A stretch of DNA of 63,862 bases, filler included, from an uncultured Methanosarcinales archaeon (GTDB lineage Archaea > Nanobdellota > Nanobdellia > Woesearchaeales > CAZXZL01): assembly GCA_964645415.1 (NCBI GenBank). It is 4 parts of 4 records of this genome, joined end to end, with 100 filler letters (N's around TTAATTAATTAA, not from the genome) between each part and the next. Parts side by side here need not be neighbours in the genome. Positions count along the whole stretch, not along the records: positions 34,883 to 61,131 come from CAZXZL010000009.1; 3 more parts are not named here. One strand, written 5' to 3'. Shown here one piece after another: positions 4,024 to 61,231 of this stretch (positions within the stretch are counted from its first letter, which is position 1; each line of letters starts with the position of its first letter). The notes beneath the pieces were generated by a model. That model did not search any database, was not told the origin of the DNA, and saw only the letters and a program-made list of their open reading frames with translations. A program made the position numbers and the translations under genes.

Positions 4024-4123
4024 NNNNNNNNNNNNNNNNNNNNNNNNNNNNNNNNNNNNNNNNNNNNTTAATTAATTAANNNNNNNNNNNNNNNNNNNNN
4101 NNNNNNNNNNNNNNNNNNNNNNN
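4024..4123. other. Artificial contig linker
   Basis: N44-TTAATTAATTAA-N44, stop codons in all six frames. Confidence 0.97.
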
Positions 4124-6646: not shown

Positions 6647-6660
6647 AGAAAAATAAATTA

Positions 6661-7623: not shown

Positions 7624-7800
7624 TGTTAACACCAAATAAAAGAAAGAAGCCACTTATTAAAAAATAAGCAATGGAAACAATTAACAAATGGCTTCAATTT
7701 AACTATTGTTAATTATATTAAAATAAACCTGAAAATGATTTATAAAAGTTATTAAAGATACTTCTATAATTAGAAAAAAATCATACTTTTTTAAAATAGT

Positions 7801-34782: not shown

Positions 34783-34882
34783 NNNNNNNNNNNNNNNNNN
34801 NNNNNNNNNNNNNNNNNNNNNNNNNNTTAATTAATTAANNNNNNNNNNNNNNNNNNNNNNNNNNNNNNNNNNNNNNNNNNNN
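34783..34882. other. Artificial contig linker
   Basis: N44-TTAATTAATTAA-N44. Confidence 0.97.
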
Positions 34883-35975: not shown

Positions 35976-38900
35976 AGATAATTTGATTTAATAATCTCAT
36001 TAACATCAAATATCTCAAAAATAGCTTTCCTTGATAAATATTTAACTTCATCACCAACATTATTTTTTTCTAATTCTAAAAGGATGTCATCAATTTTCAT
36101 CCCATTACTTTTAAAGCTCAAAATAGATGTTTTTATATCTTCATACATATTCAATTGGTTTTTATTAAGATTAAAATAAATATCAGAACCAACCTCTTTA
36201 ACAGAATTAATAAAAGAATTATCTAAATCTGATTCAATTAAGTAAGAAATGACTTCTTTTAAATCAATTCCTTTATCTTTATATGAAATTATTATCGAAC
36301 GAACTTCATCATTGGATCTTGAATCAACAGATGAAGAAGAGTCTTTAGAAGAATCTTTAATGTTTGTATCATTATCTTCAATATTATCATCATTAGAATA
36401 AACTACATCATTATTATTATTATCATAACTATCAAAAGAATTTAAAACAAGAGATAATTCACCTTCTAAGCTGTTTGAATTTAAAATACTTGATACATTA
36501 AATAGATTAAAAATTGATTTTAGTACAAAATAATAAGTTTCATTAGAAACATCATTTTCTTTAATATTAGATAATATTTCATCAATATTTAAATCATTAT
36601 TTTTCATATCTTTAACATTATTAAATACACTTTGATAAAAATCTTGATCACTTAAATGATTATTACTATCATTATTAAAAATAATTTCAGATAATTCATT
36701 TTGACATTTATTTAAAATTTTTTCATCATTATAGTTTTTATTAAAATTATTTAATATCTGAATAGGATTGAATCCATTTGATATCTGTTTATTAATCTCT
36801 TCTTTAATGTTAATTTTATTATCATGAGCAATCTGATTAATATTATTATTATTATTAATATCATTATTATCTTTACTATCTTTATTTTGAACATCATTTC
36901 CATCTAGATTAAAATCTAAATCATCAAGAGAATCAGATTCATCGTTAGAATCACTGCCATCATGAGAGTTTTTTATAAACTTATTTTTAAAATCATTAAA
37001 ATGTTCATTAAGTGAAAAAGAAGATTTTTTTACAAAAACAAATGATAAAAATATTGCAAAGATTAATATTACTACAAAAACGAAAATACTATTTAAAAAA
37101 TTATCATCGGAATCAGCATCATCTTCATCTTCTAATTCATCTTCTTCTAATCCTTCATCCTCTTCGTAATCTTTATCATCTTCATCAACCTCATCTTCCA
37201 CTTCTTCAGTATCCTCATCATCTTCATCATCNNNNNNNNNNNNNNNNNNNNNNNNNNNNNNNNNNNNNNNNNNNNNNNNNNNNNNNNNNNNNNNNNNNNN
37301 NNNNNNNNNNNNNNNNNNNNNNNNNNNNNNNATCATCTTCATCATCCTCATCATCTACTTCTTCAAAATAAAATAAACTTAAATTAGCATGAGATTGATT
37401 TAGAATATCTTTTAAATGAAATTTAATCCCATAAAATTCAAGATCTAATGAGTCATAAGTTACCTCTTCATTAACAGACATTGAACTATTTTTTAAAAAC
37501 GAATAGTTAATATAGTTCTCACTAATAGAGAAAACACTAAAATTAAAAGAAGTACTATTTATTTCAAAATTAAATCTTTGATTTTCTTCAACATTAAACG
37601 TTTTTTCATCACCTAAACTAAATCTACCTAAATCAATTTCTTCTTTATCCTCAGTATCTGGTTCTGTTGAGGGAAAACCACCTGGTGCTCCACCAACATC
37701 ACCAGAGTCATCATCATCAGAATCATCAGAATCATCATCACTAGTCTCTTCAACTAATTCATAAGCAATAAAATTAGAAAAGTGATGAGTAAAAATAAAT
37801 AAATCATCATCTTCTTTAAAGAAACATTGATTATTTGGACCAGAAAGAAATATATTTTTTGGTCTTGAGTAATTATCACAAGTTATATTAATCTCATAAA
37901 GTTCATCACCATCAACAAATCCTGCTTTGTAATTAGACATATTTGGTAACTTAATTTTTACTGGTTTATCAAAAGAAACTCTTGAATTAGAAACTCCTAT
38001 CTCCATTGCCATTTTAACATCAATACCAGAGAGATCTAAATCAATTTCTTGTATAAAATCAAAGTTCCCATCCCACTCATCTTTTTCAACATTCATATTA
38101 GTATCTTCTAAAAAAGAAGTAATAATTGAACGATCATTATTGATTTCCCTCTCAAAAGAAGTATCTGAAAAGAAGTTAACTGAATTATCAGATTTTTCAT
38201 TAAAATATAAATTGATATCAGAAGTTACATTATAAGGAATAGATATATCTCTAATATCTTTATTGTTTTCAAAAATAATATCATTGATATTAGAAGATAC
38301 TTCAATAAAAGACTCATTAACTAATTTTTGATTCTCTGTTATATTTTCTACCACCGAAAAAGAAGAAACACTTGAAATATTACTTTTAATACCATGTGAT
38401 GAATTAGCCCAAAAGAAATATTTATAGTTTTCTGGAGATAAATTTAATTTTGAAAAACTCCAAATAACATCTCCATCATTGTTCATATCATAAACAGAAT
38501 AATTTTCTGAAGAAGAATTCTTTAAAAATAATTTAACATTCTCAGAATCAGAATAATCATCAATAGTTACGTTAAATTGATAAATATTAGAATCATTATA
38601 TATATAAGGTAATTTTGTATTTATTTTATCATACGTTACAGGTGCAGTAACATTAAAGGAAATACTAGAAGAATTAACATTACCTGCAGAATCATTAACC
38701 CAAACATTTAATTCATTTTCACCATCATAAAATCTCTCTTTAAAAGGGAAATAATAAGATCTATCTTTTCCTTCAAAATTATACCATATACTATCTATTC
38801 CTGACAATTCATCATGTGTAGAAAAGTTTAAAAGAATATCTCTTGATTTAGTATAGTTTTGAGATAAAGGGGAGATTATATCTAAATGAGGATTTTTTGT

Positions 38901-41900
38901 ATCAACAATGAAATTTATCTTTTTTTCTGCAACATTTCCCGCAGAATCATTTGAAAAGAAAGAAATATTATGTTTGCCATTTTCTAATTCGATATTATCT
39001 TCGTCTTCAAAAACAATTTCATCATCATTAACTTGATACCAATTCTCATCAATATCATTTTTATCTGTAGAATCAAATTCAATTAAAAGATTAGATGAAT
39101 TGTAATAAGAATTATTTAACGGAGAAACAACATGGATTTCAGGAAGAATTGTATCAACAATAAAAGAAATTGTTTTATTAGCAACATTACCTAAAGAATC
39201 ATTTGACCAAAATGTAATATTGTTTTCACCTTCATCAAACTGAAAAGATTCAAATTCATTATATTCAAATTTAGAATTATTATATTCAAACCAATTTTTA
39301 TCAATTTCAGATAACTCATCTTGAGACATAAATTCAACATCGATTAAGTCTTTACTATAATAAGAATTATTTATTGGAGATACAACTTCAATATTAGGTG
39401 GTTTAGTATCTATAACAAAGTCAATTTCTTTTGATTTTTTATTACCTGCATAATCTTTAACACCAACAATAAGATTATTATCTCCTTGTTCAAAAAGAAC
39501 ATTTTCTGGTTGAGAGTAGGAATTATTTGAGTTATTAAAATAATACCATACTTCTGAGATACCAAAATTATTTTGTGTAGATATATTAAGTAAAACATCA
39601 AGAGAATTATAATACTCTCCTTCAATAGGACTAATAATATTTAATTCAGGCAATTCAGTATCAATTGTAAAGTTGATAATTTCAGAATTGTGATTAACTA
39701 ATTCTTCACCATCATAATCATAAGCACTCACATTAAATTCATATTCACCATCATCTAAAATTATATCAAGTGAACAATTATAAAGAAATGTATCATCAAA
39801 CCTCTCACAATCAACTTCATCACTACCTTCAATATCATATATATATTCACTACCATCAACATTAAAGACAACTTCACCAATTTCAATCCCAGTTCCATTT
39901 ACTTCAACAATTAAGGATTTTTCACCATAATTAAAAAAATCTCCGTTTTTTGGAGATTTAAATTCAATTTCAGGATCAAGACTATACTCAAATAATGCAA
40001 ATGAAGAAGCACTATCAAAAGTCCCTCTTACATATCTTTCTTCAGAATTTGATGAAATATCATCAATAATTTCCCAATCATCAGTTTCACAACTTGATAT
40101 ATCATAATATGGACATCTAAAGATTAAAATATCTTCCCAATTTATAGAATCAGAAAAAGTTGGTTCAGAATTAATAAAATCATATAAATTACTATAATTA
40201 AACAAAATTTCTAAATAATTAAAAGAATCAAAATTTTGGTCAATAGATATACCTCCAAAACTAAAATCAGTAAAACCTTGAGGGATTGATGCATCTTCTG
40301 GAGAATTTAAAGAATCTAATTCAAATGTAGAAAATTCTAAAGGATCTTCAAAGATAATATCATCATTTTCTTCTTTAAAGTCAACATTTGCAGATAAAAT
40401 ATCTAATTCAATATGATAAGGAATACTCTCTTCAATATTATTAAAATCCTTCATAACATCTAAATTCAAATTCCAATCATAAAAAATATCATATAATTCG
40501 ATTTCAAAACTTTCGGTCCCTAAAACAGAATCAATCATTGGTTGAGGGATAATATCAGAATCAAATTTTAAAATTGGATCTATAAAGTAATCAATATCTA
40601 TCTCAGAATCATCTTTCACAAACTCAGTATTTATAGTTGAATAGTTACTTAAAAAAAACGATTTAGTTAGAAAATTAAAATTAGATGAATCATCAACCGA
40701 AGTTGCCATTCCAACATGTTCTCCATTTAGAGGTAAATCACTCATTTCAAGTTGATAATTTTGGTCAAAAGAATCATAAACATAATCTTCAACAGTGATA
40801 AGTTCAAACTCAGAAATGTCAAAAGAACCTTCACTATCTCCTTTAAATTTTATACTTAAGTCTTCTTCTTCAAGTGTTGGATTAAAATAATCTATACTTA
40901 TATTCTCTTTATGTCTTATAATAAGGTCATTTAAAGATAAAGATCCCGGAGATTCATAATCTAAGAAAAAAGGAACTTGACAAAAGACATCAAGATTCTC
41001 ATCAACATAAAGTTTATTACTTAAATCGTTTATATTATCATAATAATCTCGATAATTAAAAAAAGAAATTTTTTCTTTCTTACAAAGGTCTAAATATTCA
41101 TTAATCGATTTTGTTAAATCAGAATTCGATATAAATTTGCTATCTTTAAGTTCTCCTTCAATAAAATACTCAATATCATCATTATTAGAAATATCTAAAC
41201 TTAAATCTTCAGGATAGAAATTACCTATTTCAGATATTCCCTCAATTTGATTCCAAACCATATCCTCCTCTCCATCACCATCTAAATCATATTCAATATT
41301 AAATAATCTTACTTTATTATTTCCATAATCGGCAATGGATAAATAAAAAGTGGCAATCATACTTGAAATTCCATCATACTTCACAGATAAATCAGTTGGA
41401 TTATTTATTCTTTCATCATCAGGTAATTGTTCATTACTTATAGAATCAAGGTGATCATAGTTTTCAAGATCACTCATTTGGTCTAAAACAAGGTCATCAC
41501 CATCATGATCAATACTAATCATATGAATCATATTATTATCTTGGTCTAAAACAAAAACAAATTCAATCATGAACCAAAAGTCCATACCCATATATTCTAC
41601 AGTATCATCAATTAAAACAGTATCAATTGCTTCAATTGAATTCATATCATTTATATTATCATAATCATTAATATTTTTATTAAAATCAAAATCAATTATA
41701 TTTGAATCAGAATCATAACTTCCAAAAAAGATATTATCTTGAGATGTTGTTACGATATTATTATTTACAGAATCGATTTCAGTAAAAGACTCACCTTCAT
41801 AAACAATTGAATCAAAAGTTAATTCACCATCATCTAAATAGATTAAACTAATTTTTTCATCATAAGGATGAGTTGAAAAGACTTTATTATTGATATTTGT

Positions 41901-43634
41901 TACTTCAGATGGTCTTGATAGAGAATGTTCTGAAAAATTTAATTTAGAAACTAAATAATATTCATCATCTTCATTAGTTCCATATAATCTTAAAACATTA
42001 CTTAAGTCAACAACATACAAATAATCTTTAAGTTGACCTAACCTTCTTGGTCTAAATATTTCATCACTCATATACCTTGAGCTAAAACCACCATCTTTAT
42101 AAGAATAAATTCTATTATGATAACCATCAGAAATAGACAAATCAAAATTATTACCACCTTTTGATAAACTTACACTCCTAGGACTTTTAAAAACTTCATA
42201 ATCAGAGTCAGTATCTATATTAAAACCAAAATCTGTGACAACTGAATTAACAGGTAATAGTAATGAAGATTTTGTTGGTTCATTTAAATATAATGATTTC
42301 ACATTTTTTTCACTAAATCTATTAACTAATCCTAAATAATCTCTTGAAAAAATATTTTTCTCATTAAATAGAATATTAAAATTTTTTATATGATTATAAT
42401 TATCAGGGTTTTGAGATATTTCTTTTAAATCATCTTGAGTTGAAATAGGTTGGTATTTTAAGTTAAATGAAGAATCAAAAATTAAGTCAGAGTATAGAGA
42501 AAAACTTTCTTCATAATTATAATCATTACTAGAAGATAATTCAACATCAAAGAAATCAATTTTGAAATCTAAAACATCATCTTCACTAAATAAAAAAAGA
42601 CCTGATTCTATTACAATAGAATTATCTTCAACTGAAATAGAAAAACTTCTAGAAGAGATATCATCTTTATGAATGTTAAAATCAGAAATTTTAGGTTCTA
42701 AAAAATCTTTTAAGAAAATACTTTCTTCAGATATTTGTAAAACGTTTCCCACTGAATTTCGATGTATATCATATCTTAACCTATCAATTTCAATAAATGT
42801 TAATAAAGAAAGACTATCAGGATTATAAGGGATTAGAGGTAGACTACAATTAATTATACCCTCACCTGAGTGATGTTTGTCATAATCATAATCTGTGATA
42901 AAACATTCAAAAAAATTACCTTCATTTAATTTATTTTCAGCTTGATAGATAGAGAGGTCTTTACTAATATCTTTATCTGAGAGAAAAACTCTTTTTTGTA
43001 AAGAATCTATATCTCTATATGAATCAAATTCATAATGAATCTCAATATTATCTCCAGGGGAAATATCTTCAATTGGTGAATCAAAAGTTGGCTGGTTAAA
43101 ACGATAAGAGAAATACCCTGTTTCTAAATTAATTGGAACAATAAAAACTTCATCATTATTAGTTTTATTTAAAATTAAATGAGCAGAAATACTTTCAATA
43201 GTTTCTATTTCATTAAAAGAAAGAATTTCATCAACCATGTCTACAGAAAAGTTATAATATAAATTAATTGTTTTATCACTTAAACCATCTATTGAAATAA
43301 CTTTATTATTACTAAAATCAGAGAATTCATTTTCAATAAAACTAAAAAAATTCAAATCAGATAAAGCTTCATTATCAATATTTTCATCATTAATATCATC
43401 GAGTTCTATACTAACATCAATATCATATGGTGAATTAATTTTATTAAATACAATTAACTCGTCTAATCTTCCAGTTGTATTAAAAAGTAAATCACCTGAA
43501 ACTTCAACATCATCTATTCTAAATAAATCAGTGATTTCAACATCATATGAATTTGAAAATGAAGACAATAAAAGGACATTTGTAAATATTAAAAGAATAA
43601 AAACAATTAATTTTCTATTAATTAAATAATCCAT
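35972..43634 (-). CDS. Giant (about 2500 aa) acidic cell-surface protein spanning a scaffold gap
   Basis: Signal peptide, NHL/beta-propeller-like region (IADYGNNKVR), tandem Ig-like DT..P.I.I.SP repeats, D/E tract on both sides of the 37232-37331 gap, then TM and cytoplasmic repeats. Confidence 0.75.
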
Positions 43635-43919: not shown

Positions 43920-44192
43920 TTATTTTTTGTTAATAACTTCTTTAACAGCATTTTGAACATCATTTGGTGAGAAACCAATAATAGTTATTTTATTTTTTTC
44001 TAAGTAACTTTCTAAAATATTAGAAATTTCAAAGTATTTCTTTCCCACTAAAATCGATTCAATATTATCTATTTCATTCTCAGGGTATATAAAAAAATCA
44101 CCAGATAATTTAAAATCAGTTATTTTATTATCATTTATATTAAAATTAATTCTTAATAATTTGCCTCCTTTTACTTTATAATCTATTTTCAT
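43920..44192 (-). CDS. Lipoate-protein ligase C-terminal/accessory subunit (LplB-like)
   Basis: KVKGGKLLRI..I..FKLSGDFFIYPE..IE..L.G. Confidence 0.85.
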   Translation of the reverse strand: MKIDYKVKGGKLLRINFNINDNKITDFKLSGDFFIYPENEIDNIESILVGKKYFEISNILESYLEKNKITIIGFSPNDVQNAVKEVINKK

Positions 44193-44198
44193 TGAAAA

Positions 44199-44996
44199 TT
44201 ACCTCTTAAAAATCCAATCATTTGTAGAATATTTATTATGTTTTAACTTTTTAGCTTTATTAAGTTCTTTATTTGTAATTTTTCCTTTGATAAAATCAAC
44301 ATTAAAAACTTCTTTAAAACCTTTTACTAAATGTTTTTGAACAGAATCTAAGCCTAAATTAAATCCTAGCTCTGAATTAAGTGATGTAACTCGATCTTTA
44401 ACATTTGAAATCATTTTATCCTTTATTTTTTCATTAGGTACTTTTAATACATTAAACATCTCATCAATATTATTTTCTAAAATTAAAGTGCCGTGTTGAA
44501 TAATTACATTATCTAATCTAGTTTGAGCACTTCCAGATATTTTTTTTCCATTAACAATAATGTCATTTATTGATTTAAATTTAGCATTTAATCCAATATT
44601 CTTTAATCCTTTAACTAAAGAAGAACATATTTTTTCATAAGATTTTTTTATATCAGAAGATAAGATATCTTTTGAAACAATTAAAGAATAAGTTATTTCT
44701 GATTTATGATAAACAGCCCCTCCTCCTGTCAATCTTCTAATTACATCTATTCCTTTTTTCTTTGCATAATCTAAATCTACTTCAGATTCTATCTCTTGAA
44801 AATAACCTATTGAAACACAAGGAGGATTCCAATTGTAAAACCTTAATGTATTTTTTGAAAAACCTTTTGAAACAAATTCTGAAATGGATTCATCTAATGC
44901 CATATTCATGTCTCCACTATAAGTATTTAAATTGATTAATCTCCAATTATTAGAATAATTATTATTATCGTTAGTTACTATTTTCAAACACCTCAA
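44199..44996 (-). CDS. lplA: Lipoate/octanoate-protein ligase catalytic subunit (LplA/LipM family)
   Basis: WRLI, NMALDE, LRFYNW..SIGYFQ, RRLTGGGAVYH, ND..GKKISGSAQ, QHGT; no ATG near the GAGGTG RBS, so start is uncertain. Confidence 0.9.
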   Translation of the reverse strand: MRCLKIVTNDNNNYSNNWRLINLNTYSGDMNMALDESISEFVSKGFSKNTLRFYNWNPPCVSIGYFQEIESEVDLDYAKKKGIDVIRRLTGGGAVYHKSEITYSLIVSKDILSSDIKKSYEKICSSLVKGLKNIGLNAKFKSINDIIVNGKKISGSAQTRLDNVIIQHGTLILENNIDEMFNVLKVPNEKIKDKMISNVKDRVTSLNSELGFNLGLDSVQKHLVKGFKEVFNVDFIKGKITNKELNKAKKLKHNKYSTNDWIFKR

Positions 44997-45837
44997 AAGC
45001 TTTATAAGAACTTCTTACAAAAGGATTAGAAAAAACATAATTAATCCCTAAATTTTTTGCATAAGATTTAATTTTATTAAATTCAGATTCAGAATAAAAT
45101 TTTTTAACAGGATAATGATTTTTTGAAGGAGGTATATATTGGCCAACAGTCAAGATATCTATTCTAGATTCATGTAGGTCATTAATTGTTTCTTTAATTT
45201 GATTAAAGGTTTCACCAAATCCTACCATAAATCCAGACTTAGTAATAATACTATTACTTTTAGCATCAATCTTTTTTAAAAGATTAAGTGAATGATTATA
45301 ATCTCCTTTAGGTCTTAAATGATTAAATAAGTTAAAAGTTGTTTCAATATTATGATTTATAACATCAGGATTTGACTCGATTAATTTATCAATTAGTTGA
45401 AGATTATCTATGAAATCAGGTATTAAAATTTCAATCTTACAATTAGGTTTGATTTTTTTTATATTATTAATTACATCAATAAAATGAGATATCCCTTGAT
45501 CAAAAAGATCATCACGAGTAACAGATGTAATTACAACATAATTGAGATTTAGTTTTTTTACTGTTTCTGCAATCATTTTTGGTTCATTTTTGTTTAAGTT
45601 AGTCGGTTCTCCTGATGAGATATCACAATACAAACAATTACGAGTACATATTTCACCCATTATTAAAAATGTAGCAGTTTTCTTAGAAAAGCATTCATAA
45701 CGATTGGGACAATTTGCAGATTCACACACAGTATTAATTTTATTATTTTTTATTAGGTTTTTTGTATCTAAGTAATCATATCTATTAAAATCTGAAATTT
45801 GATAGTTTTTAGGTAGATTTAACTTATTAAAGTCCAT
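44971..45837 (-). CDS. lipA: Lipoyl synthase (radical SAM)
   Basis: CESANCPNRYEC (CX4CX5C), CTRNCLYC, VTRDDL, NHNIET, KSGFMVG.GE, RSSY. Confidence 0.95.
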   Translation of the reverse strand: MDFNKLNLPKNYQISDFNRYDYLDTKNLIKNNKINTVCESANCPNRYECFSKKTATFLIMGEICTRNCLYCDISSGEPTNLNKNEPKMIAETVKKLNLNYVVITSVTRDDLFDQGISHFIDVINNIKKIKPNCKIEILIPDFIDNLQLIDKLIESNPDVINHNIETTFNLFNHLRPKGDYNHSLNLLKKIDAKSNSIITKSGFMVGFGETFNQIKETINDLHESRIDILTVGQYIPPSKNHYPVKKFYSESEFNKIKSYAKNLGINYVFSNPFVRSSYKAFEVFENSN

Positions 45838-47149
45838 TTTTGTTAAGGTATCTAATTTTTTTTGATAGAATTTCTGAAGTATTAATCATAGGATCAAAAA
45901 TAGGAGCAGAACCTGGGTTATAACAAGTTTCAACATTTGAAAGTGAATTGACAGACATATTATTTTTAATAGCAACACTGATTGTATTAATTCTACCAGA
46001 AACATTAACATCACTAAAAACTTGACAACCAATTAATTTTCCAGACTTATTTGCAACCATATTATATTTAATTTTATCATTAGATTTAAAATATTCTGAG
46101 GAAACTTTACTTTCAAAAGTAGCAGAAATAGGGTTTATCCCATGAATTTTTGATTTCCTTGAATTAAAACCAACTGCTCCTAAATATTTATCACCTATTT
46201 TAGTGATTGTTGAATTTAAGAAAGGATTGTATTTTTTATCACAAGATAAGATATTTTCTGCAATAGTTTTTGCACATCTAACTGCTTTTGTCCCAAGCAT
46301 AGATACCTCAAATTCATTATTAATCCCATTTTTAGTTAAAGCACAATCACCACCAGAAAATATATTCGGATCAGAAGTTTTTAAATAATCATCTACTATA
46401 ATTCCTCTTTTAACATTTAATCCTATCTTTTTAGCTAGAGAAATATTTGGTTTAAGACCAGTACAAGAAAAAATAAGACCAGAAGGTAAATCTTTTTCAT
46501 CTAAAATCACTTTATCTTTTTTGATTTCTTTAACATTAGAGTTAAAAAATAAATTAATTCCTAATGATTTTAAATATTTTTCAACATCTTTAGATAGATT
46601 TGAATCAATTATCGAAGGTAATAAATAATCTTCAGATTCAATTAAATTTACATTAATACCAATTTTATTTAAAGAAACAGCTAACTCAACACCAATTAAA
46701 CCTGACCCAATCACTGAGATATTTTTTATCTTTCTGTTTTTTAAATTCTGATTTAAAAGATGATAATCTTCTATAGAATTAAAAGATAAAGTATTTTCAA
46801 CCCCTTTAATATTTGGAAATTTTTGTTTACTCCCAGTACAAAGAACAACATAATCATAACTATATTTATTTGAGTCAGTTATTACTAATTTATTACTTCG
46901 ATCTATATTTTTAACTTCAGATCCTAAAACAATCTCAATATTATTTCTTTTAAAGTCTGATTTACTAAAAGGAAAAATTTCTTTTTCAGAAACTACTTCA
47001 TCAGAGATTAAATAAGGAAGAGAACATTGAGAATAATCTAAATTATTAGTTTTCTCTAAAATAGTTATATCTATTTTTTTATTTAACTTTCTTAAATGAA
47101 AAGCACAACTTGTTCCTAAAGTTCCTCCACCGATAATAATTACTTTCAT
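45827..47149 (-). CDS. FAD/NAD(P)H oxidoreductase, CoA-disulfide reductase/NADH oxidase family (single redox Cys)
   Basis: IIGGGTLG, YSQCSLPY, IGSGLIGVE, FSGGDC, C-terminal CYNP..AP..DP. Confidence 0.85.
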   Translation of the reverse strand: MKVIIIGGGTLGTSCAFHLRKLNKKIDITILEKTNNLDYSQCSLPYLISDEVVSEKEIFPFSKSDFKRNNIEIVLGSEVKNIDRSNKLVITDSNKYSYDYVVLCTGSKQKFPNIKGVENTLSFNSIEDYHLLNQNLKNRKIKNISVIGSGLIGVELAVSLNKIGINVNLIESEDYLLPSIIDSNLSKDVEKYLKSLGINLFFNSNVKEIKKDKVILDEKDLPSGLIFSCTGLKPNISLAKKIGLNVKRGIIVDDYLKTSDPNIFSGGDCALTKNGINNEFEVSMLGTKAVRCAKTIAENILSCDKKYNPFLNSTITKIGDKYLGAVGFNSRKSKIHGINPISATFESKVSSEYFKSNDKIKYNMVANKSGKLIGCQVFSDVNVSGRINTISVAIKNNMSVNSLSNVETCYNPGSAPIFDPMINTSEILSKKIRYLNKNGL

Positions 47150-47186
47150 ATATTATAAACCCCAAAAAATTCATTTTAAGATAAAA

Positions 47187-47579
47187 TTAATCAATTTTAT
47201 CACTATAAAATTTTTTAGCTTCTAAACTATCCATTAAATTTTCAATTTCAGACACATCTTTAATCTTAACTTTCATTATCCATTCTTCATAAGGATTCTT
47301 ATTTAATTTAGAAGGATTATTAAACAAATCTTTATTAACATCAATGATTTCACCAGAAACAGGAGAAGAAAGATGACCAGACCATTTTATTGCCTCTAAA
47401 GAAACATAAGTCTCTCCTTTCTTAATATTATTTCCTCTCTTAGGAAGGTCAATAAAAACAAACTCTTTAACTTGAGTTGAAGCAAGAAAGTTTACTCCTA
47501 TTTTTACAACATTATCATCTAAACTTACCCAAGAAAAATCTTTATCATAAAGTAATTTTTCAGGAAATTTATCCTTCAT
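47187..47579 (-). CDS. gcvH: Glycine-cleavage H-like lipoyl carrier protein
   Basis: LLY..SWV..KIGV..VFIDLP..G..LEAIKWSGHLSSPVSGEIIDVN..P..LN.NPY..W; ATG overlaps the upstream gene, AGGTGA RBS. Confidence 0.88.
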   Translation of the reverse strand: MKDKFPEKLLYDKDFSWVSLDDNVVKIGVNFLASTQVKEFVFIDLPKRGNNIKKGETYVSLEAIKWSGHLSSPVSGEIIDVNKDLFNNPSKLNKNPYEEWIMKVKIKDVSEIENLMDSLEAKKFYSDKID

Positions 47580-48936
47580 CTTTATCACCTTCTAAATCAT
47601 CAAAACTAGATCCGATTTTAATACCAAATTTAGGTAGTATTTTTTGATGTAAAAACATAATAACAAAAGACAAAATAAATGCAAATCCAAATACATATAG
47701 AGAACCAACAATTGTTCTCATAAGATCATCTCTAAAAATTAAAACCCATGCTAAAGCAAGCATTAAAACTCCTCCAATTAATTTTAAAATACGTCCATGC
47801 TTCTTCTGGAATTTTTTTGATTTTAATGTAAATACTGCAGAAAAAAAGATAACTAGCTCTATTATAAGATATATCAAGATATATAAAATTAATAAAGAGT
47901 AAAAAGAAACACCAAATATACCTTGATCAGACATAAAACCAGACCAAATCATAGGAAAACCTGAAGTACAAGGAAGCTCAATTAAAGTAACTCCTAAAGC
48001 CATAACTGCAGTAGCAATGAGCATAGAAGGAAGAGATTTATCAGGATCCATAATGTTTCTCATCTTTTTAAATAACTTTGGTTTAAATTTATCAGGTATA
48101 GTAAACGATATCCCTTTTTTATACCAAAAATAATCCTTAATATTAACAACTGCAAAAATAAAAGCAAGTAAACCTACAATTAATTTAATCCAAAAACTGT
48201 AACCAATATATGTAAATACATTTAATAATCCAACAATAAATAGACCATAAACTGTAGCAGTAACAGTTAAAAAAGTTATTCCAACAAGAGCTATTTTCTT
48301 TCTTGAACCAGTATATAAAACAATTCCTAAAAGAAAAGTTAAAACCCATAAAGAACAAGGATTAAATCCATCAACAAAAGCAATCATACTAGTAAATAAC
48401 ACTGCAGGCATATCTGAAGCATCAATTTTGCCAATAAACGGAACATCAATTTTTTCAACAGACTCTCCAACATAATCACTATCATCAGGGATACCAGGAG
48501 TAATACCATCTATCTGTTCTATAGGACAATCACAACCATATAATTCACATTCAATTAATTCATTTTCTAAATAATTTTCAATCTCAGAAATCCCTAAAAG
48601 ATAGTTATCTCCGATAAAAACAATTGGAAAACCTGCCGTTTCTAAATTATATTTCTCTTTAAATTCATTATATAGTTCTAAATTTTCTTTTTCTGATACA
48701 TTATAGATATGAAGTTCTGAATCAGATAAATTTTCATTAATGAAATTTAAAACTTTTTGACATTGAGGACACTCATAATCAACAAATAAATGTATGCATT
48801 GATTAGATAAATCAAATTCTTCAGTAGATGTTATCTCATGTTGTGAGTGAATACCAAAGCTCAAGAGAAAAAGGAAAAAAATAATCACTGAAAAAAACTT
48901 TAAGTAATTAATATTTTGAAATTTTCTAATAATCAT
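47569..48936 (-). CDS. Thioredoxin/glutaredoxin-fold domain fused to CcdA/DsbD-type membrane domain
   Basis: N-terminal signal/TM, CPQC and cis-Pro GFPIVFIG, CxxxxCxC linker, TM region with DGFNPCS and IELPCTSG. Confidence 0.85.
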   Translation of the reverse strand: MIIRKFQNINYLKFFSVIIFFLFLLSFGIHSQHEITSTEEFDLSNQCIHLFVDYECPQCQKVLNFINENLSDSELHIYNVSEKENLELYNEFKEKYNLETAGFPIVFIGDNYLLGISEIENYLENELIECELYGCDCPIEQIDGITPGIPDDSDYVGESVEKIDVPFIGKIDASDMPAVLFTSMIAFVDGFNPCSLWVLTFLLGIVLYTGSRKKIALVGITFLTVTATVYGLFIVGLLNVFTYIGYSFWIKLIVGLLAFIFAVVNIKDYFWYKKGISFTIPDKFKPKLFKKMRNIMDPDKSLPSMLIATAVMALGVTLIELPCTSGFPMIWSGFMSDQGIFGVSFYSLLILYILIYLIIELVIFFSAVFTLKSKKFQKKHGRILKLIGGVLMLALAWVLIFRDDLMRTIVGSLYVFGFAFILSFVIMFLHQKILPKFGIKIGSSFDDLEGDKDEG

Positions 48937-48984
48937 TTAAGTCACCTATTATAAATAAATGTTGAAAAGCTATTTAAACATTTG

Positions 48985-49024
48985 TTTCAAAAATTGAAAT
49001 AAACTCTTTTTTCATAATATGAAA
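48985..49024. promoter_or_regulatory. Two TTTCA-N5-TGAAA palindromes just upstream of the operon TATA box
   Basis: TTTCAaaaatTGAAA (48985-48999) and TTTCAtaataTGAAA (49010-49024); TTTAAATA on minus strand at 48971-48978. Confidence 0.5.
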
Positions 49025-49027
49025 TAA

Positions 49028-49516
49028 TTAATTAGATAAAAAAATATCAAAATAATCTTCTTTTAAAGAAATTTTATTAGTCATTCCATTTTTTTCTTTA
49101 TTAATTATTTTTTTTGACTCTAATTTGGAGATTTTTCTAGATATCTTTACTGGTGAAAGATTAGTTATTTTTTTAATTCTACTTTGACTAATAGAACCTC
49201 CTTCATTGATCAATAGTTTCACAATCTCTTTTTCAGAACCTTCAAAAAAATTTAAAGTCTTATCAACTTTATTATTAAAGTTATTAACTTTGTCTGAAAA
49301 GTTTTTTCTTAAAATATAGTAAACAAATGTACCTACAAAAATACCTAAAATTGACATTAAAATCATTAAAGAAGGAATAGTAATACTACAACCACACATT
49401 TCTTGAACACTATATCTTTCTCTGATAAAAATTGAAGTAAAAAAAACTAAAAATAGAAATCCAGAAATAATAGAAACAGCTAAAGCTATTTCTTTAAAGC
49501 TATTTTTTTCATTCAT
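49028..49516 (-). CDS. Membrane-anchored winged-helix (MarR-like) transcriptional regulator
   Basis: Two TM helices with an EMCGCS loop, then EKEIVKLL..GGSISQSRI..LSPVKISRKISKLESKKII.KEKNGMTN. Confidence 0.8.
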   Translation of the reverse strand: MNEKNSFKEIALAVSIISGFLFLVFFTSIFIRERYSVQEMCGCSITIPSLMILMSILGIFVGTFVYYILRKNFSDKVNNFNNKVDKTLNFFEGSEKEIVKLLINEGGSISQSRIKKITNLSPVKISRKISKLESKKIINKEKNGMTNKISLKEDYFDIFLSN

Positions 49517-50528: not shown

Positions 50529-53500
50529 TTAATTTAATTCAGATTCATCAGATAATTCAGTTAATTCAATATTTTCAGGATAAAATCCTTGATTTTCATC
50601 AGTATTAATATAAAATTGATCAGTATCTTCAGTTTTTAATTTGTATATTTTATATAACATCAAATAAATAAAAATAAGTAGGATTAAAAAGATAATATCA
50701 AATACTCTTCTTGATAAAATACTTCTTGAATCAAAATTATCATTTTCATACATATCAACCATTTCATCATATATGACTCCAGAATGATTTATATTAGAAG
50801 AAGTAGTGTTTTGAAATATTTTTATACGGTTATCATAAATTTTATCTTTTTTACTATCAGTAACATCTTTTTCTTTTAAAATTATTTGATAATAACCAAA
50901 ATGGGGTAAACTTTCGTGAAAGTATATATAATGATCATCTTTAAATAAATAATCCATTTTGTATTTATCCATCATATTATCTTCTGAAAATTCTTTCAAA
51001 TAAACATTAAAATTATTTTCTTTATTATCAATATCTAATTTCAATTTTATATTAATTCCACTTTTAATATAATCTGAATAATTAGAAGTTAAATGAAAAT
51101 AAAAAGGACTATTATATTTACTCTTATTATTACTTTCATAATCAATAATCTTAAGTGGTTTTTCTTTAAATTCATGTAATTCAAAGTAAAAATCATCAAT
51201 ATTTGAACTAGAGTTAAATTCTACTTTTTGGATAATGAAATCATCTAACATCTCTAAACTATTTTTACCTTTTACTAAACTAGTAGTTCTTATATCACTT
51301 CTAATTGGAGAAGAATAATATTCTAATTCATCATCTTCATCTTCATTGCCATCATCAGATTCTTCATATAATTCACTTTCATCAGGAACACTGCTACTTC
51401 CTAAATCAGATTCTCCATCATCAGAAACATCATCACTTTCTTCATCTGATTCAGGTTCTTTTTCTCTACTAACACTACATTTTGATGTTTCACCACCATA
51501 CTCTCCAATACACTCCCATGTAACAGAATCTCCTTTATCTGGAAAGGAAGGATAAACAGGATCTAATTCACCAGAATCACAAAAATCATTTTCATCCCAC
51601 TCATCAACATCATAACCATATTGAAGACCATCTTTATCACTACATTTACCATCGATAACCTCATTATATGAAAAAAAGGTACTAAAACGATAAGTCCAAA
51701 GAATTAAATCATTTCCATCATCAAAAAAACAAGTCTTATTAGTTTTATAATTAATATTTGATGGATCATTTATATCTTTACAACTTTTATTTATATTAAC
51801 TACCTTTGAATTATTATTTTTCAAAGCAACATTCTTTTCAGATTCACCTGATAAATTAATTCTGACTGGTTTATCAAATTGAACTCCTGATAAATTAGAA
51901 CCAATAAAAATATTTTCTCCTATCTTCTTTCCTTGATGTTCAAAATCTTTATCAGAATAAGGAAGATAAAAATTACCATCAAAATGATCATTAAAAGTTA
52001 AAGTTAAGTTTTCTGGGAAGAAGATGGAATGATTATCTTTATGATTCATTATCATTTCATTTTTTAAATAAAGTTCATTATTAACAAGATTATTTAATAT
52101 ATTGAATCTAACTTTATTATTACTAGTATTTATCATTTTAATTTTTGAAAGGTCAGTATAAAATAAACTAGATGTTTGGTTAGATACCTTGTATTTACTA
52201 TGATTTATTATATCCTCTCCTTCACTTAAATTTTTTAATATATTAAAATTAGAGATAGAAGTTATCTTTCCTGAATTACCTTTACTATCTTCAGCCCAAA
52301 AATAATATGAATAATTACCATAAGATAAATTTGAAAGGGAGTAGTTAAAAACATTATTTTCTCTATAAAGATTAAAGCTTTTAAATTCATTTGAAGAATG
52401 ATTTTTTAAAAATAATTTTGATTTATTAATACCATTAGGGTCATATAATTTAATTTCAAACGAATAATTATTTGATTTATTATAAATTGTTGGGAGATTA
52501 ACAGAAACATCATTAACTCGAGGAGGTTTTTCATCAATTACTTCAATTGTTTTTGTATCATTAGAAGAATAAAAATTATTACTTCCTGAATAGAATAAAG
52601 TTAAGTTCTTTTTTCCAACATTTGTCAAGTTGAGAGAGTAATTGAAATTCGAATTATTAAAGTTACTTAAAGAAGTATCAAATAATAAAAGTTCCATTGA
52701 ACTAATATCTCCTTTAATAATATTTCCAGATAAATTAATTTTAGAACCATAAGAATAGTTTTTTGAATTATTATAAATGGTTAATTCAACATTACTCTGG
52801 GACTTAGTTATTTTAAAATTAAAAATTGTTGAGTTCTTATTTCCAGAAGAATCATTTACAGAAATATTTAATGAATAATTATCGACATCTAATTTTGTTT
52901 TATTAGTTAATTTACCCTTATCAGAAATTAAAAATCTTTCTGAGTCATTAACTGAAAACTCATCAATTTCAACGTTATCTGTTGCATTAAAATTTATCTC
53001 TGGAAAATCACCACCATAAGTGAGATTAAAACTTTCTGGGATATTTTTGAATTTTGGAGCCTCCTTGTCAAGAACAGATAAATTTAAAGAAACATTTTTT
53101 GATTTATAATTACTAGAATTATAAAAACGTGAAATAATAGATAAATTACCTAAAGTATTATTAAAAGTATAATTATAACTAATATTAGTTGGATTAGATT
53201 GAACTAACTTATCAGAATTATAACTATTATTATAGTCTATCAATAAATCAAAATAACCAAATTCTCCTTTAGATAAGTTACTTTTTATCAAAAAACTATC
53301 TCCGAAATTTACATATTCCCCATTTGAGAAGTTTTTCAAAGATAAATTTATTTTTGGTTTGGATGTTAAAATTTTTAATTCATTAGAAACTAAAATTGAA
53401 GAACTAGAATAATTCTCTCCTCCTGATGTATTCAAGATATATTGATAATTACCTACATCCTTAATATTATCTTCTACACCAACATACTCACCATCTCTCC

Positions 53501-56114
53501 ATAATTTAAAATCAACATCTGAAGAACCAGGATTATTATGAGAAAAATTAATAATTGTTTCTTTATTAGAATAATTAAAATACCAACCTAAAGAACTATT
53601 TAAATTAACAGTAGGTTCTATTTTATTAATAGAAATATTTAGTTTTTCTTTATCAGTATCACAGTAATCTCCTGAATAAGAAAAATTTAAAGAATAATCA
53701 CCAACTGAAAGATTTTCTTTTACGATTAAATAACCTGTTTCATTAATTGAAAAATTTTCATTATTAATTTCCCAATTTTCGATATTACCACAAAAATAAT
53801 CATTCAAATTAATATTACCAGATGAAAGATAAAGAATATCAAAATTATTTATCCCAAATGAAAAATTTCCCTTTTTAACATAATTAATACTATCATTTAA
53901 ATAAAAAATAAGATTGTAAGAACCTGATTCAAATGATGAAGTATTTTTAAAATTAATAGACCAATTGTTTTCAGAGACATTTGGTTTTAGGTAATATTTT
54001 GATTTTATAAAATCAGATCCATTCCAATAATAATTATTTGGTGAGATTAATTTAAGATAAAAAGAATCTAATTCAGTTTTATTTGAAAAGTTACCATAAA
54101 AAGAATTAGGAAAATCATCAACAGAATAAACTGAATTATTAATATATTGATTAAAGTTAAATTCAATTGAAGAATTATAATACATAAAAGAGTGATTTAA
54201 TAATATTTCATCATAACGATCATAAATTTGAAAAGAGTACTTCTCACCTGATTCAAACTTAATATCACTCATATTATATTTCCATAAGTTTTCATTAGTA
54301 TCTAAAGATAAATTTTGTTGATTACTAACCCATTTTGAACTATTCCAATAATTGCTTTGATTATCTCTTAGAGTAATCTTCAAATCTGTTTCTGGATAAA
54401 TATAACCAGATAATAAAAGATCAGAGTAAGGACCAAAACTTTTCTGATCTGTTTCTAATGAAAAATTATAATTCTCTAAAGCTAATAATGTTTTTATATC
54501 TAAAATAGGGTATTCAATATCATTCTCTTCTACGGTATTATTTGTTCTTGAAAAATCATTTAAAAAAGAATCAAAATCATAATTTAGATCATATTCATTA
54601 GTATATTCATAATATAAAGCTAAAGCACCAGCCACATGAGGTGTTGCCATAGATGTTCCACTTGATGTGACAAAGCTATTTTCTGGGAATGTAGAAAGTA
54701 TTCTATGTCCATAAGCCATTGTGTCTAAATATTTATTTCTATTACTTTCAGCTATTTTATTAGATTTATCAACAGACCCTACTGAGAGAACTGAAGGTAA
54801 ACAAGCAGGAGATACTAAAGAAGTATCACTTTCATCATTCCCACTTGCAGCAGTAACAATTATTCCATTTTCCTTAGCATTATTTATAGAACTACTTAAA
54901 TAAAAATCATTACAATCTTCTTCGCTTTCAAAGGTACTATCACTACCTAAACTCATTGAGATAACTTTAATGTTATATTTTTCTGATTTTTCTACACAGT
55001 AATCAATCCCTTTTTTAATATCACCAAAATTCCCCTTTCCTTCATCATCTAAAACTTTTACTGGGATAATATGTGATTCTGGAGCAATACCATAATATTC
55101 TGAACCCTTAGCAGAAACAATCCCTGATACATGAGTACCATGACCATCTTTATCAATAGGATTATTATTACCATCAGCAAAATTCCAACCGCCTAAAATT
55201 TTATCACAAGACTCATAATAATTATAATATGTATATGAAGATAATTTCAAAGACTGGTTATAGTTTTCAAAATCATCAGATCCAATATATATCTCAAGGT
55301 AATCTAAAGAAATATTTCCTGTTGAATAATTTGAAAAAGAATCTATATCTTCTATTAAAAGTTCTTCATTTCCTTCTGAATCATAAATAGATAAATAATC
55401 ATTAGAAGATAAATTAATATTTTTAAAATTTAGAGAGAGATATTTAGATCCAGATTCATTAATTTTGGTGAATTTTTTTTCATTTGATGACTCTTCATCA
55501 CCTTTTTCACTTAAAAAAAACTTATTTGTATTAACATTTGTTTTATTAATACTATAAAGTTCATCACAACCACCAAGATGAGAATGAGTATAATCAACAC
55601 CTGTATCAAGAACACAAACTCCAACATCTTCACCTGTAAAACCCCAATCCCATGCTGTTGAAGCTTTCGTTAAATCAGTAGTTTCATCAATAGCAATTTT
55701 TGCTTTAGGTACAGGCTCTATTTTTTTTACAATATTGAGAGAATTAAGCATATTTCTTTCAGAACTATCAAGTTCAGCTGAAAAAAAGTTCTCTTCAGGA
55801 AATTTATTTTTTACTTCTGAATATTCAAGTTTTTCAATTAAATAATTAAAAGTTCTTCTACGAAGATGATTTACCTCAGATGAATTATAACTTTTTACTT
55901 TTTCAGACCAACTATTAACTTGAGAGGGTTCTTTTAAATAAACAAATTCACGATTATTCTTAATACTTTGTTGATGACTCATAACTGAAAAAGAATCTGA
56001 TACTGATTCAACTTCTAAATCATAACCTGGTAAATTCATTGAATAGATTAATAGAGAATTGAATAATATAATAATTGAGATTAATAAAATAAATTTCAAT
56101 AATTTAGGGGCCAT
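50529..56114 (-). CDS. Large surface S8 subtilase with Ig-like stalk and C-terminal TM
   Basis: VLDTG, HGTHVSG, AASGN, GTSMATPHVAG; signal peptide; C-terminal TM. Confidence 0.9.
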   Translation of the reverse strand: MAPKLLKFILLISIIILFNSLLIYSMNLPGYDLEVESVSDSFSVMSHQQSIKNNREFVYLKEPSQVNSWSEKVKSYNSSEVNHLRRRTFNYLIEKLEYSEVKNKFPEENFFSAELDSSERNMLNSLNIVKKIEPVPKAKIAIDETTDLTKASTAWDWGFTGEDVGVCVLDTGVDYTHSHLGGCDELYSINKTNVNTNKFFLSEKGDEESSNEKKFTKINESGSKYLSLNFKNINLSSNDYLSIYDSEGNEELLIEDIDSFSNYSTGNISLDYLEIYIGSDDFENYNQSLKLSSYTYYNYYESCDKILGGWNFADGNNNPIDKDGHGTHVSGIVSAKGSEYYGIAPESHIIPVKVLDDEGKGNFGDIKKGIDYCVEKSEKYNIKVISMSLGSDSTFESEEDCNDFYLSSSINNAKENGIIVTAASGNDESDTSLVSPACLPSVLSVGSVDKSNKIAESNRNKYLDTMAYGHRILSTFPENSFVTSSGTSMATPHVAGALALYYEYTNEYDLNYDFDSFLNDFSRTNNTVEENDIEYPILDIKTLLALENYNFSLETDQKSFGPYSDLLLSGYIYPETDLKITLRDNQSNYWNSSKWVSNQQNLSLDTNENLWKYNMSDIKFESGEKYSFQIYDRYDEILLNHSFMYYNSSIEFNFNQYINNSVYSVDDFPNSFYGNFSNKTELDSFYLKLISPNNYYWNGSDFIKSKYYLKPNVSENNWSINFKNTSSFESGSYNLIFYLNDSINYVKKGNFSFGINNFDILYLSSGNINLNDYFCGNIENWEINNENFSINETGYLIVKENLSVGDYSLNFSYSGDYCDTDKEKLNISINKIEPTVNLNSSLGWYFNYSNKETIINFSHNNPGSSDVDFKLWRDGEYVGVEDNIKDVGNYQYILNTSGGENYSSSSILVSNELKILTSKPKINLSLKNFSNGEYVNFGDSFLIKSNLSKGEFGYFDLLIDYNNSYNSDKLVQSNPTNISYNYTFNNTLGNLSIISRFYNSSNYKSKNVSLNLSVLDKEAPKFKNIPESFNLTYGGDFPEINFNATDNVEIDEFSVNDSERFLISDKGKLTNKTKLDVDNYSLNISVNDSSGNKNSTIFNFKITKSQSNVELTIYNNSKNYSYGSKINLSGNIIKGDISSMELLLFDTSLSNFNNSNFNYSLNLTNVGKKNLTLFYSGSNNFYSSNDTKTIEVIDEKPPRVNDVSVNLPTIYNKSNNYSFEIKLYDPNGINKSKLFLKNHSSNEFKSFNLYRENNVFNYSLSNLSYGNYSYYFWAEDSKGNSGKITSISNFNILKNLSEGEDIINHSKYKVSNQTSSLFYTDLSKIKMINTSNNKVRFNILNNLVNNELYLKNEMIMNHKDNHSIFFPENLTLTFNDHFDGNFYLPYSDKDFEHQGKKIGENIFIGSNLSGVQFDKPVRINLSGESEKNVALKNNNSKVVNINKSCKDINDPSNINYKTNKTCFFDDGNDLILWTYRFSTFFSYNEVIDGKCSDKDGLQYGYDVDEWDENDFCDSGELDPVYPSFPDKGDSVTWECIGEYGGETSKCSVSREKEPESDEESDDVSDDGESDLGSSSVPDESELYEESDDGNEDEDDELEYYSSPIRSDIRTTSLVKGKNSLEMLDDFIIQKVEFNSSSNIDDFYFELHEFKEKPLKIIDYESNNKSKYNSPFYFHLTSNYSDYIKSGINIKLKLDIDNKENNFNVYLKEFSEDNMMDKYKMDYLFKDDHYIYFHESLPHFGYYQIILKEKDVTDSKKDKIYDNRIKIFQNTTSSNINHSGVIYDEMVDMYENDNFDSRSILSRRVFDIIFLILLIFIYLMLYKIYKLKTEDTDQFYINTDENQGFYPENIELTELSDESELN

Positions 56115-61131: not shown

Positions 61132-61231
61132 NNNNNNNNNNNNNNNNNNNNNNNNNNNNNNNNNNNNNNNNNNNNTTAATTAATTAANNNNNNNNNNNNN
61201 NNNNNNNNNNNNNNNNNNNNNNNNNNNNNNN
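61132..61231. other. Artificial contig linker
   Basis: N44-TTAATTAATTAA-N44. Confidence 0.97.

Follow-up and report, generated by a model that had tools for sequence, protein, structure and literature searches.

The locus studied here raises the question of what a lipoyl carrier, the enzymes that would lipoylate it, a flavoprotein and a thioredoxin (Trx)-membrane protein do together in one operon of a small archaeal genome. The window, i.e., the whole 63,862-nucleotide stretch of DNA analysed, comes from assembly GCA_964645415.1 of an uncultured archaeon of the Woesearchaeales. It is a concatenation of contigs C3, C8, C9 and C66, and gene neighbours across the N-run joints (4024-4123, 34783-34882 and 61132-61231) are therefore not real; the operon lies wholly on C9 (34883-61131). 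The host genome comprises 961 kb in 79 contigs and is rated 100% complete with 1.46% contamination. We found that the operon represents a real, conserved and regulated module, of which no published description was found in the literature searched. A sequence-only reading had interpreted it as a lipoate-based relay that carries reducing power across the membrane, and our analysis partly supports this interpretation. We lean towards a route, tentative as to direction and end acceptor, from NADH through the flavoprotein and the lipoyl carrier to a membrane Cys pair and a surface Trx. The features of the operon, from upstream to downstream, are as follows.

49028-49516, minus strand: membrane-anchored regulator, 162 aa; PF24034 (DUF7343 winged helix-turn-helix (HTH)), 43 bits, above cut-off
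49010-49024, no strand: putative distal palindromic operator TTTCA-N5-TGAAA, from motif conservation
48985-48999, no strand: putative proximal palindromic operator TTTCA-N5-TGAAA, abutting a TATA-like element (by eye) before the operon
47569-48936, minus strand: Trx-membrane protein, 455 aa; weak glutaredoxin domain, CPQC, Pro-Cys motifs, predicted model
47187-47588, minus strand: stand-alone lipoyl carrier of the H-protein fold (H), 133 aa; PF01597 GCV_H, 108.5 bits
45827-47149, minus strand: flavoprotein of the CoA-disulfide reductase (CoADR)/Nox superfamily, 440 aa, candidate lipoamide reductase; Pyr_redox_2
44971-45837, minus strand: LipA lipoyl synthase, classical type, 288 aa; TIGR00510, 327 against a cut-off of 310
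44199-44996, minus strand: LplA, large subunit of lipoate-protein ligase, 265 aa; PF21948, 191.7 bits
43920-44192, minus strand: LplB, small subunit of lipoate-protein ligase, 90 aa; NF053749, 70.9 against an NCBIfam cut-off of 65

All seven genes named in the sequence-only reading are present as minus-strand open reading frames (ORFs) with profile identities, and the motifs it quoted (YSQCSLPY, DFSW, EAIKW, CPQC, NPC/LPC and CGC) can be read in the translations. The six genes downstream of the regulator overlap or lie at most 37 bases apart, and the regulator lies 91 bases upstream. LipA carries CX4CX5C, CX3CX2C and RSSY; it scored 34.2 on the LipS2 profile against a cut-off of 270, so it is not of the LipS1/S2 type.

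The proposed relay depended on the cluster being conserved elsewhere, and this was the case. With the membrane protein as query, 79 loci were obtained (from the best 80 of 82 stretches). At 52 of them the Trx-membrane gene is directly followed by H, which in all 52 is co-oriented with it and no more than 227 bases away. By tblastn, the flavoprotein and LplA were each found at 31 of the 79 loci, LipA and the regulator each at 26, and LplB at 23. The record titles name Woesearchaeota, Nanobdellota, Aenigmatarchaeota, Nanohalarchaeota and several groups of the candidate phyla radiation (CPR), besides many other labels on genomes that span 0.4-1.8 Mb, so that the loci belong to archaea and bacteria with small genomes. 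Typically, the membrane gene is followed by H, a surface thioredoxin, a variable slot, lipA, lplA and lplB, in this order. The separate surface thioredoxin, mostly CPHC and presumably located outside, follows H at 41/52 loci; the operon in the window has none, and a homolog lies on contig C17. At the 52 H loci, the variable slot is filled by the flavoprotein alone (27), TusA-YeeE-DsrE-F-H (8), DUF169 (5) or a mixture (3), with nothing visible at the other 9, mostly on cut contigs. AhpD/CMD stands beside H at 8 related loci.

Within the same order, H was matched in 38 of 151 genomes, the host included. Thirty order-level loci comprised 16 with H beside the membrane gene (the host's own among them, and five in genomes already represented in the 79), 11 with H beside GcvT/GcvP-like ORFs (GcvT read by eye) and 3 with neither; none of the 20 order-level module genomes was among the 16 genomes with GcvP. 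In a divergent branch, four of five weak H matches were short lipoyl domains (87-105 aa) directly behind a divergent membrane gene, with the flavoprotein and lipA behind H in three of the four and the regulator in front in two.

Two other proteins of these loci were noted. DUF169, which takes the place of the flavoprotein at L009, L015, L024, L037, L043, L046, L052 and L128 (e.g., L052:9812-10579), has four invariant Cys in 8/8 copies and is a possible Fe-S or dithiol partner of lipoyl-H. F7 (e.g., L026:4655-5293) is membrane-anchored, has no Pfam match and a lead-level likeness to phosphate-binding proteins, and occurs at 34/52 loci and not in the host genome; a conserved CxxC considered for it did not hold, as 12 rows have it and 23 do not.

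The known roles of H proteins do not account for the carrier. Its lipoyl lysine, Lys68, sits in E-A-x-K-W-S-G-H-L, with E65 and K68 in 52/52 rows, and its score of 92.3 is under the gcvH equivalog cut-off of 115.85. HEW, found in 10/10 glycine-cleavage H proteins of relatives, is replaced in module H, which is also less acidic (mean net charge -5.4 versus -10.3). The operon H, the sole H-like match in the host genome, has zero Cys, and any Cys was found in 7/46 module H proteins. A profile search of the host genome, with controls positive in 10-13 of 14 known genomes, gave no match to GCV_T, GDC-P and Lpd, ruling out a glycine-cleavage role, and none to E1_dh and the E2 catalytic domain, ruling out a 2-oxoacid dehydrogenase role. 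The lack of GcvP, GcvT, E1, E2 and Lpd, claimed earlier for the window, thus holds genome-wide in the near-complete host genome, where a full glycine-cleavage system or pyruvate dehydrogenase served by H was looked for and none was found. Among 50 of the 52 H-locus genomes (all but L005 and L030), GcvP was found in none, E2 as one clear and one weak match, and Lpd above cut-off in two; since 46/50 do show TrxB, the missing GcvP and E2 do not reflect mere incompleteness. The sHdr-LbpA reading is ruled out by the lack of sHdr genes (no match to the CCG domain or sHdr in the host genome) and of LbpA cysteines and by the classical LipA. Likewise, a GcvH-L/SirTM operon is ruled out because the operon contains no sirtuin; the only SIR2 match in the host genome is below cut-off on another contig, and none of the seven operon genes is a macrodomain, although no search aimed at macrodomains was made. 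The module belongs to none of the described lipoyl systems.

The protein to which H is tied consists of a signal/anchor helix, an exported glutaredoxin-like domain with C56-P-Q-C59, a Cys-bridged linker (C130, C135) and a seven-helix membrane domain that bears the invariant P193-C194 and C323, two of its helices being predicted to break at the Pro-Cys motifs. The two membrane cysteines (PC..PC) pointed out earlier are therefore present: C56, C59, C194 and C323 are invariant in 71 aligned rows, and C194 and C323 also in a 59-row set. The Pro-Cys cysteines lie in membrane helices 1 and 4, which we take to be their places in CcdA. Structure models reached a predicted local distance difference test (pLDDT) score of 76.6 for the whole protein and 82.4 for the membrane part, and a structure search of the model showed that the fused CPQC domain resembles Trx/Grx structures. 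Lys/Arg-rich loops at 211-214, 267-294 and 373-385 would, by the positive-inside rule, place the Trx domain outside. Linkage to H occurs on several branches of the membrane-domain tree (a quick tree, in which rows L005 and L034 are mislabelled as H-less).

The flavoprotein is nearest to CoA-disulfide reductase, far under the cut-off (TIGR03385, 264.7 versus 578.8), and scores 116.3 versus 408.8 bits on the Lpd profile TIGR01350, with one Cys at the redox site and no CxxxxC. Its best solved relative is 6PFZ (named NoxA-3), followed by further CoADR/persulfide reductases, and its Cys42 falls in the same alignment column as the Cys in 6PFZ and 3ICR; the closest named relative (56%) comes from a Candidatus Woesearchaeota metagenome-assembled genome, which suggests a DPANN host. 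Its earlier description as a single-Cys protein was correct as to Cys42 in YSQCSLPY and the lack of CxxxxC, but missed a second conserved cysteine, Cys409. The cluster copies have C42 in 28/28, C409 in 27/28 and N411 in 28/28, and C409-Y-N-P stands where CoADR/persulfide reductases have Y-A-P-P. C409 is present in 17/19 in-clade sequences versus 3/41 others, and N411 in 19/19 versus 0/41. The CYNP segment presumably forms part of the active-site lining contributed by the other subunit. For the CoADR family, such a lining by residues of the other subunit is described (PMC6026696).

The module-linked flavoproteins form one 19-row clade (SH-aLRT 99), every row of which stems from a genome or locus that has H of this type, and a second CoADR-like clade with a Y-C-P motif (support 100, 9 rows) occurs in glycine-cleavage genomes. 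In the same order, 15 genomes with GcvP were compared (G131 left out): the Y-C-P flavoprotein was found in 8/11 without an over-cut-off Lpd and in 0/4 with Lpd. The Fisher p of 0.026 for this complementarity is overstated because related genomes are not independent, and G119 also has a below-cut-off Lpd-like gene. Six of the 8 Y-C-P flavoproteins are near lipA, and two module genomes, G019 and G146, have Lpd and no flavoprotein. The strongest indication of lipoamide turnover by this family is the Lpd complementarity, which points to a probable non-Lpd lipoamide reductase. At L130-L137 and L139 (e.g., L133:5151-6428 and L131:5074-6396), members of the Y-C-P clade, often in flavoprotein-lipA-lplA operons, occur in glycine-cleavage genomes without Lpd, and the clade is a candidate non-orthologous L protein. 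A LipT-like role, in which the flavoprotein would merely feed LipA, is unlikely because the flavoprotein stays at lipA-less loci (L031, L032, L016, L042, L044, L048, L053 and L056) and lipA at flavoprotein-less loci.

The regulator has two transmembrane helices (windows at 13 and 47), CGC in the loop between them and a C-terminal winged HTH; C41 of the CxC is found in 26/27 aligned rows and C43 in 25/27. TTTCA-N5-TGAAA occurs upstream of the Trx-membrane gene at 21/24 loci with the regulator nearby, at 2/53 without it, and in 3/878 background upstream windows. The host genome has 6 such sites outside ORFs, of which only the two of the operon lie within 150 bases of a start. Conservation shows the palindrome to be the probable operator of the regulator.

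All electron-transfer steps given here, and their direction, are what we infer. The operon, which would be inducible, would build a private lipoyl redox carrier and couple it to a transmembrane dithiol conduit. LplAB would put scavenged lipoate or octanoate on Lys68 of H and LipA would insert the sulfurs, attachment and sulfur insertion being the established chemistry of these families. The flavoprotein may then act as a non-Lpd NADH:lipoamide oxidoreductase. Dihydrolipoyl-H, as gene linkage suggests, would reduce the Cys194/Cys323 pair, and the pair, by analogy with DsbD/CcdA, would in turn reduce the exported CPQC domain and further thioredoxins at the surface. The regulator may sense the outside thiol state via its CGC loop and act at the TTTCA-N5-TGAAA sites. 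Lipoyl proteins are described to reduce AhpD, Ohr and OsmC, AhpD/CMD being a known lipoyl-dependent dithiol protein (PMC8945050), and DsbD/CcdA/ScsB systems to pass electrons outward from thioredoxin (PMC5403849, PMC8945050).

Several observations weigh against this route. The Trx-membrane protein is CcdA-like in motif and layout, but its homology to CcdA is unproven by sequence or fold. The structural match to CcdA 5VKV (VIA) had Z 7.9, a root-mean-square deviation of 4.8 and 201/224 aligned, at rank 7, tied with unrelated LeuT-type folds; Foldseek of the model gave no match at E 0.001 (5VKV at E 2.0). DsbD_TM matched 0/71 members and DsbD_2 gave one marginal match among 59 (E 0.093). No profile match (hhalign) to ArsG-type CcdA was found, a PDB profile search with the family gave 0 matches, and Pfam gave 0 on five divergent members; as a lead, some members of Atlas neighbours at 0.86-0.91 carry DsbD_TM or SfLAP. 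The membrane family occurs without H at 27/79 loci (6 of these with less than 820 bases of downstream sequence) and is matched in 111/151 order-level genomes, most without H, so it can work with other donors. As for the flavoprotein, profile matches were obtained in 33/50 module genomes, and 15/50 have neither flavoprotein nor Lpd match, with DUF169 or TusA-YeeE-DsrEFH in the slot, as in the single-contig genome G085; the NADH input is therefore not universal, and a simple model that starts from NADH does not account for these genomes. Nine divergent module-linked flavoproteins have Ala at 409, so Cys409 is not essential to the module, and an essential Cys42/Cys409 disulfide is not general. 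The L127 flavoprotein (6225-7565) lacks Cys42 and has a Cys after its YNP motif. The module clade and the Y-C-P clade are not resolved as sisters.

A further point against the proposed route is that the host genome already encodes TrxB and PDO, as well as another CcdA-like protein whose gene is paired with that of a membrane thioredoxin. Its TrxB-like gene (312 bits, cut-off 343) adjoins a PDO gene above cut-off (L151, G000:C38:1575-3199), and the second CcdA-like gene (DsbD_TM E 5.5e-5) adjoins the membrane thioredoxin (L150, G000:C15:3978-5383); a DsbA-like protein, peroxiredoxin, rubrerythrin and desulfoferrodoxin are also encoded. With TrxB-like and PDO genes in the host genome and a TrxB-like gene in 46/50 module genomes, the proposal that a lipoyl protein replaces thioredoxin did not hold up. 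Since the TrxB-like gene is kept, the lipoyl arm comes in addition to the thioredoxin system, and the relay would run beside it rather than in its place. Nor are the surface proteins nearby Cys-rich, as had been proposed: one contains 10 Cys over 2135 aa and the other 14 Cys over 1861 aa, less than the 1.25% mean of the exported proteins of the host genome.

The large exported proteins beside the operon lie on the minus strand at 37227-43634 (2135 aa, running into an N run), 50529-56114 (1861 aa) and 56219-58147 (642 aa), the latter two with subtilase-like domains; they are not conserved as neighbours of the module. The idea that the module serves such adjoining surface proteins was rejected, as five neighbours matched only subtilase domains at 2 loci (L112, L114). 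Elsewhere in the window, a minus-strand gene at 6661-7653 encodes a membrane protein that bears a metal-binding-like CSSC motif at its N-terminus and adjoins an 824-aa ORF (4199-6673, minus strand); H-less Trx-membrane genes in L116, L122 and L123 lie near similar CxxC heavy-metal-type genes (by eye). Other H-less arrangements were seen in L057 and L079 (Iainarchaeota), where the membrane gene stands behind IscS-like, small Cys protein and thioredoxin genes and before PFOR-like genes. At L118:5522-7662 and L115:6194-8238, the regulator, the Trx-membrane gene and AhpD (in L115 identified by eye, on the other strand) occur without an adjacent H, and the H of these genomes belongs to glycine cleavage, suggesting that a glycine-cleavage H may feed the same relay.

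The alternative that survives best keeps the same wiring and has it run inward or reversibly, the membrane protein and H taking electrons from an outside reductant (sulfide/polysulfide or host thiols) and the slot genes serving as cytoplasmic consumers: AhpD, DUF169, DsrEFH persulfides, or the flavoprotein, which would generate NADH in the manner of Lpd. We consider it unlikely. Inward flow would suit the fixed pairing of membrane gene and H (52/52), whereas the slot varies, and the 15/50 genomes with no recognisable NADH input; the related flavoprotein of glycine-cleavage genomes would, moreover, oxidise dihydrolipoyl-H. The lipoyl potential is about -290 mV. Fermenters, however, normally have surplus electrons, and PFOR-like genes are present in the host genome. 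DUF169 with its invariant Cys could equally be an input, and the described DsbD/CcdA/ScsB systems send electrons outward (PMC5403849, PMC8945050).

A second alternative, which we regard as rather unlikely, is sulfane-sulfur handling, in which lipoyl-H would carry or reduce persulfide sulfur, the flavoprotein would be Npsr-like and the surface Trx domains would act on polysulfide as an electron sink or for detoxification. The solved relatives of the flavoprotein, 6PFZ and then CoADR/persulfide reductases, are in keeping with this, and the involvement of lipoate in sulfur metabolism has a precedent in LbpA (bioRxiv 10.64898/2026.10.01.755906). Most of the stretch was also found in three soda-lake metagenome runs of one study, two of them possibly its source; no RNA run was among those listed with the stretch. 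TusA-YeeE-DsrEFH occupies the flavoprotein slot at 9 loci, never at the same locus as the flavoprotein; this cassette may, however, merely supply sulfur to LipA, and YeeE/TusA/DsrE have no match in the host genome. No rhodanese domain was found among the operon proteins and no CCG/sHdr match in the host genome, H has no cysteine, YAPP is replaced by CYNP, and the Lpd complementarity points to a lipoamide substrate.

Still less probable are two further explanations. The operon might combine two unlinked functions under oxidative stress, the flavoprotein and lipoyl-H feeding cytoplasmic AhpD-type peroxidases and the membrane protein being fed by PDO/TrxB. The wide occurrence of the membrane family without H, the kept TrxB, and L126, which has H-AhpD-flavoprotein without the membrane gene, would agree with this. 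However, a profile search of the host genome found no CMD/AhpD or OsmC match, which would leave H without a known acceptor in the cytoplasm, and the gene directly coupled to the membrane gene is always H, in the divergent branch too and where the ligases lie elsewhere (L146 and L148). Defence against arsenic or heavy metals, with the lipoyl-H dithiol and exported CxxC domains binding or reducing metalloids in parallel to ArsEFG, is just as doubtful: the 52 H loci do include ArsR-type regulators (26), ArsP-like permeases (19), ArsE-like thioredoxins (19), ArsG (9) and ArsM-like genes (4), the ArsM and ArsP labels partly by eye, besides the PstS-like surface protein F7 at 34/52 (lead-level score), but none of these genes is at the window locus, the host genome has no ArsP, ArsE or ArsG match, the window operon has its own CxC regulator and putative operator, and shared stress islands explain the link without common chemistry.

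Because the outward route from NADH would operate as CcdA/DsbD do, only with another donor arm, we group the module with envelope thiol relays. It resembles CcdA/DsbD/ScsB (Thermus CcdA 5VKV; Caulobacter ScsB-TlpA-PprX, PMC5403849) in the two invariant Pro-Cys cysteines, broken membrane helices, exported Trx-fold partner and size. Unlike these, it has no Pfam DsbD match, its exported Trx domain is fused N-terminally, and its linked cytoplasmic gene is not a thioredoxin but a lipoyl carrier with ligase, synthase and flavoprotein. The Lpd-DlaT/SucB-AhpD-AhpC and Ohr/OsmC peroxidase systems (PMC8945050) share the order NADH, flavoprotein, protein-bound lipoyl, dithiol protein, whereas the carrier of the module is a stand-alone H and not an E2, its flavoprotein lacks CxxxxC and the linked acceptor is membrane-bound. 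Glycine-cleavage H has the same fold and lipoyl lysine, and the module differs in having no P, T or L and in an H that is less acidic and has HEW replaced. The sHdr-LbpA systems (PMC10332631; bioRxiv 10.64898/2026.10.01.755906) likewise have a non-glycine-cleavage H-like carrier, dedicated lipoylation genes and a nearby FAD oxidoreductase gene (LipT), and TusA/DsrE/YeeE neighbours are shared at some module loci; the module has no sHdr or LbpA cysteines, has LipA instead of LipS1/S2, and keeps its flavoprotein without lipA. GcvH-L/LplA2/SirTM (PMC12440151) is alike in pairing an orphan lipoyl carrier with a dedicated ligase within a redox-stress operon, but the module has no sirtuin, no E2 acceptors in the genome, and a membrane partner. 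Compared with the CoADR/Npsr/Nox flavoproteins (6PFZ, 3ICR, 3KD9; PMC6026696), the module flavoprotein has the Cys42-type redox centre and dimerisation domain, but is under the family cut-off, has C-Y-N-P for Y-A-P-P, and is always tied to lipoate genes at the loci seen.

In the literature searched, mostly main texts outside subscription papers, we found no CcdA/DsbD-type protein to which H or another lipoyl carrier is linked; the lipoate genes of these genomes may appear in the tables of PMC10332631. In the covered parts of PMC3904984, no lipoylation pathway is reported for the Nanoarchaeota known at the time, and those of PMC8238504 do not mention lipoate.

A broader picture can be drawn, which we offer tentatively. 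In genome-reduced archaea and bacteria, protein-bound lipoate might form the cytoplasmic end of a transmembrane electron wire, driven by a new class of CoADR-derived lipoamide reductase that might also replace Lpd in some glycine-cleavage systems. A membrane redox sensor acting at its own defined operator might control this cytochrome- and quinone-free route, by which fermentative electrons would be dumped on, or electrons drawn from, outside sulfur compounds or a host surface. If the proposed route is true, lipoate would gain a new role as donor to a transmembrane thiol conduit, in addition to its functions in glycine cleavage, in 2-oxoacid dehydrogenases, in sulfur oxidation and in the reduction of peroxidases. 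The route would also name a likely family of non-Lpd lipoamide reductases, which would fill the slot of the L protein in Lpd-less glycine-cleavage genomes as well, and would explain why genomes of about 1 Mb without a classical lipoyl enzyme keep a full lipoylation kit.

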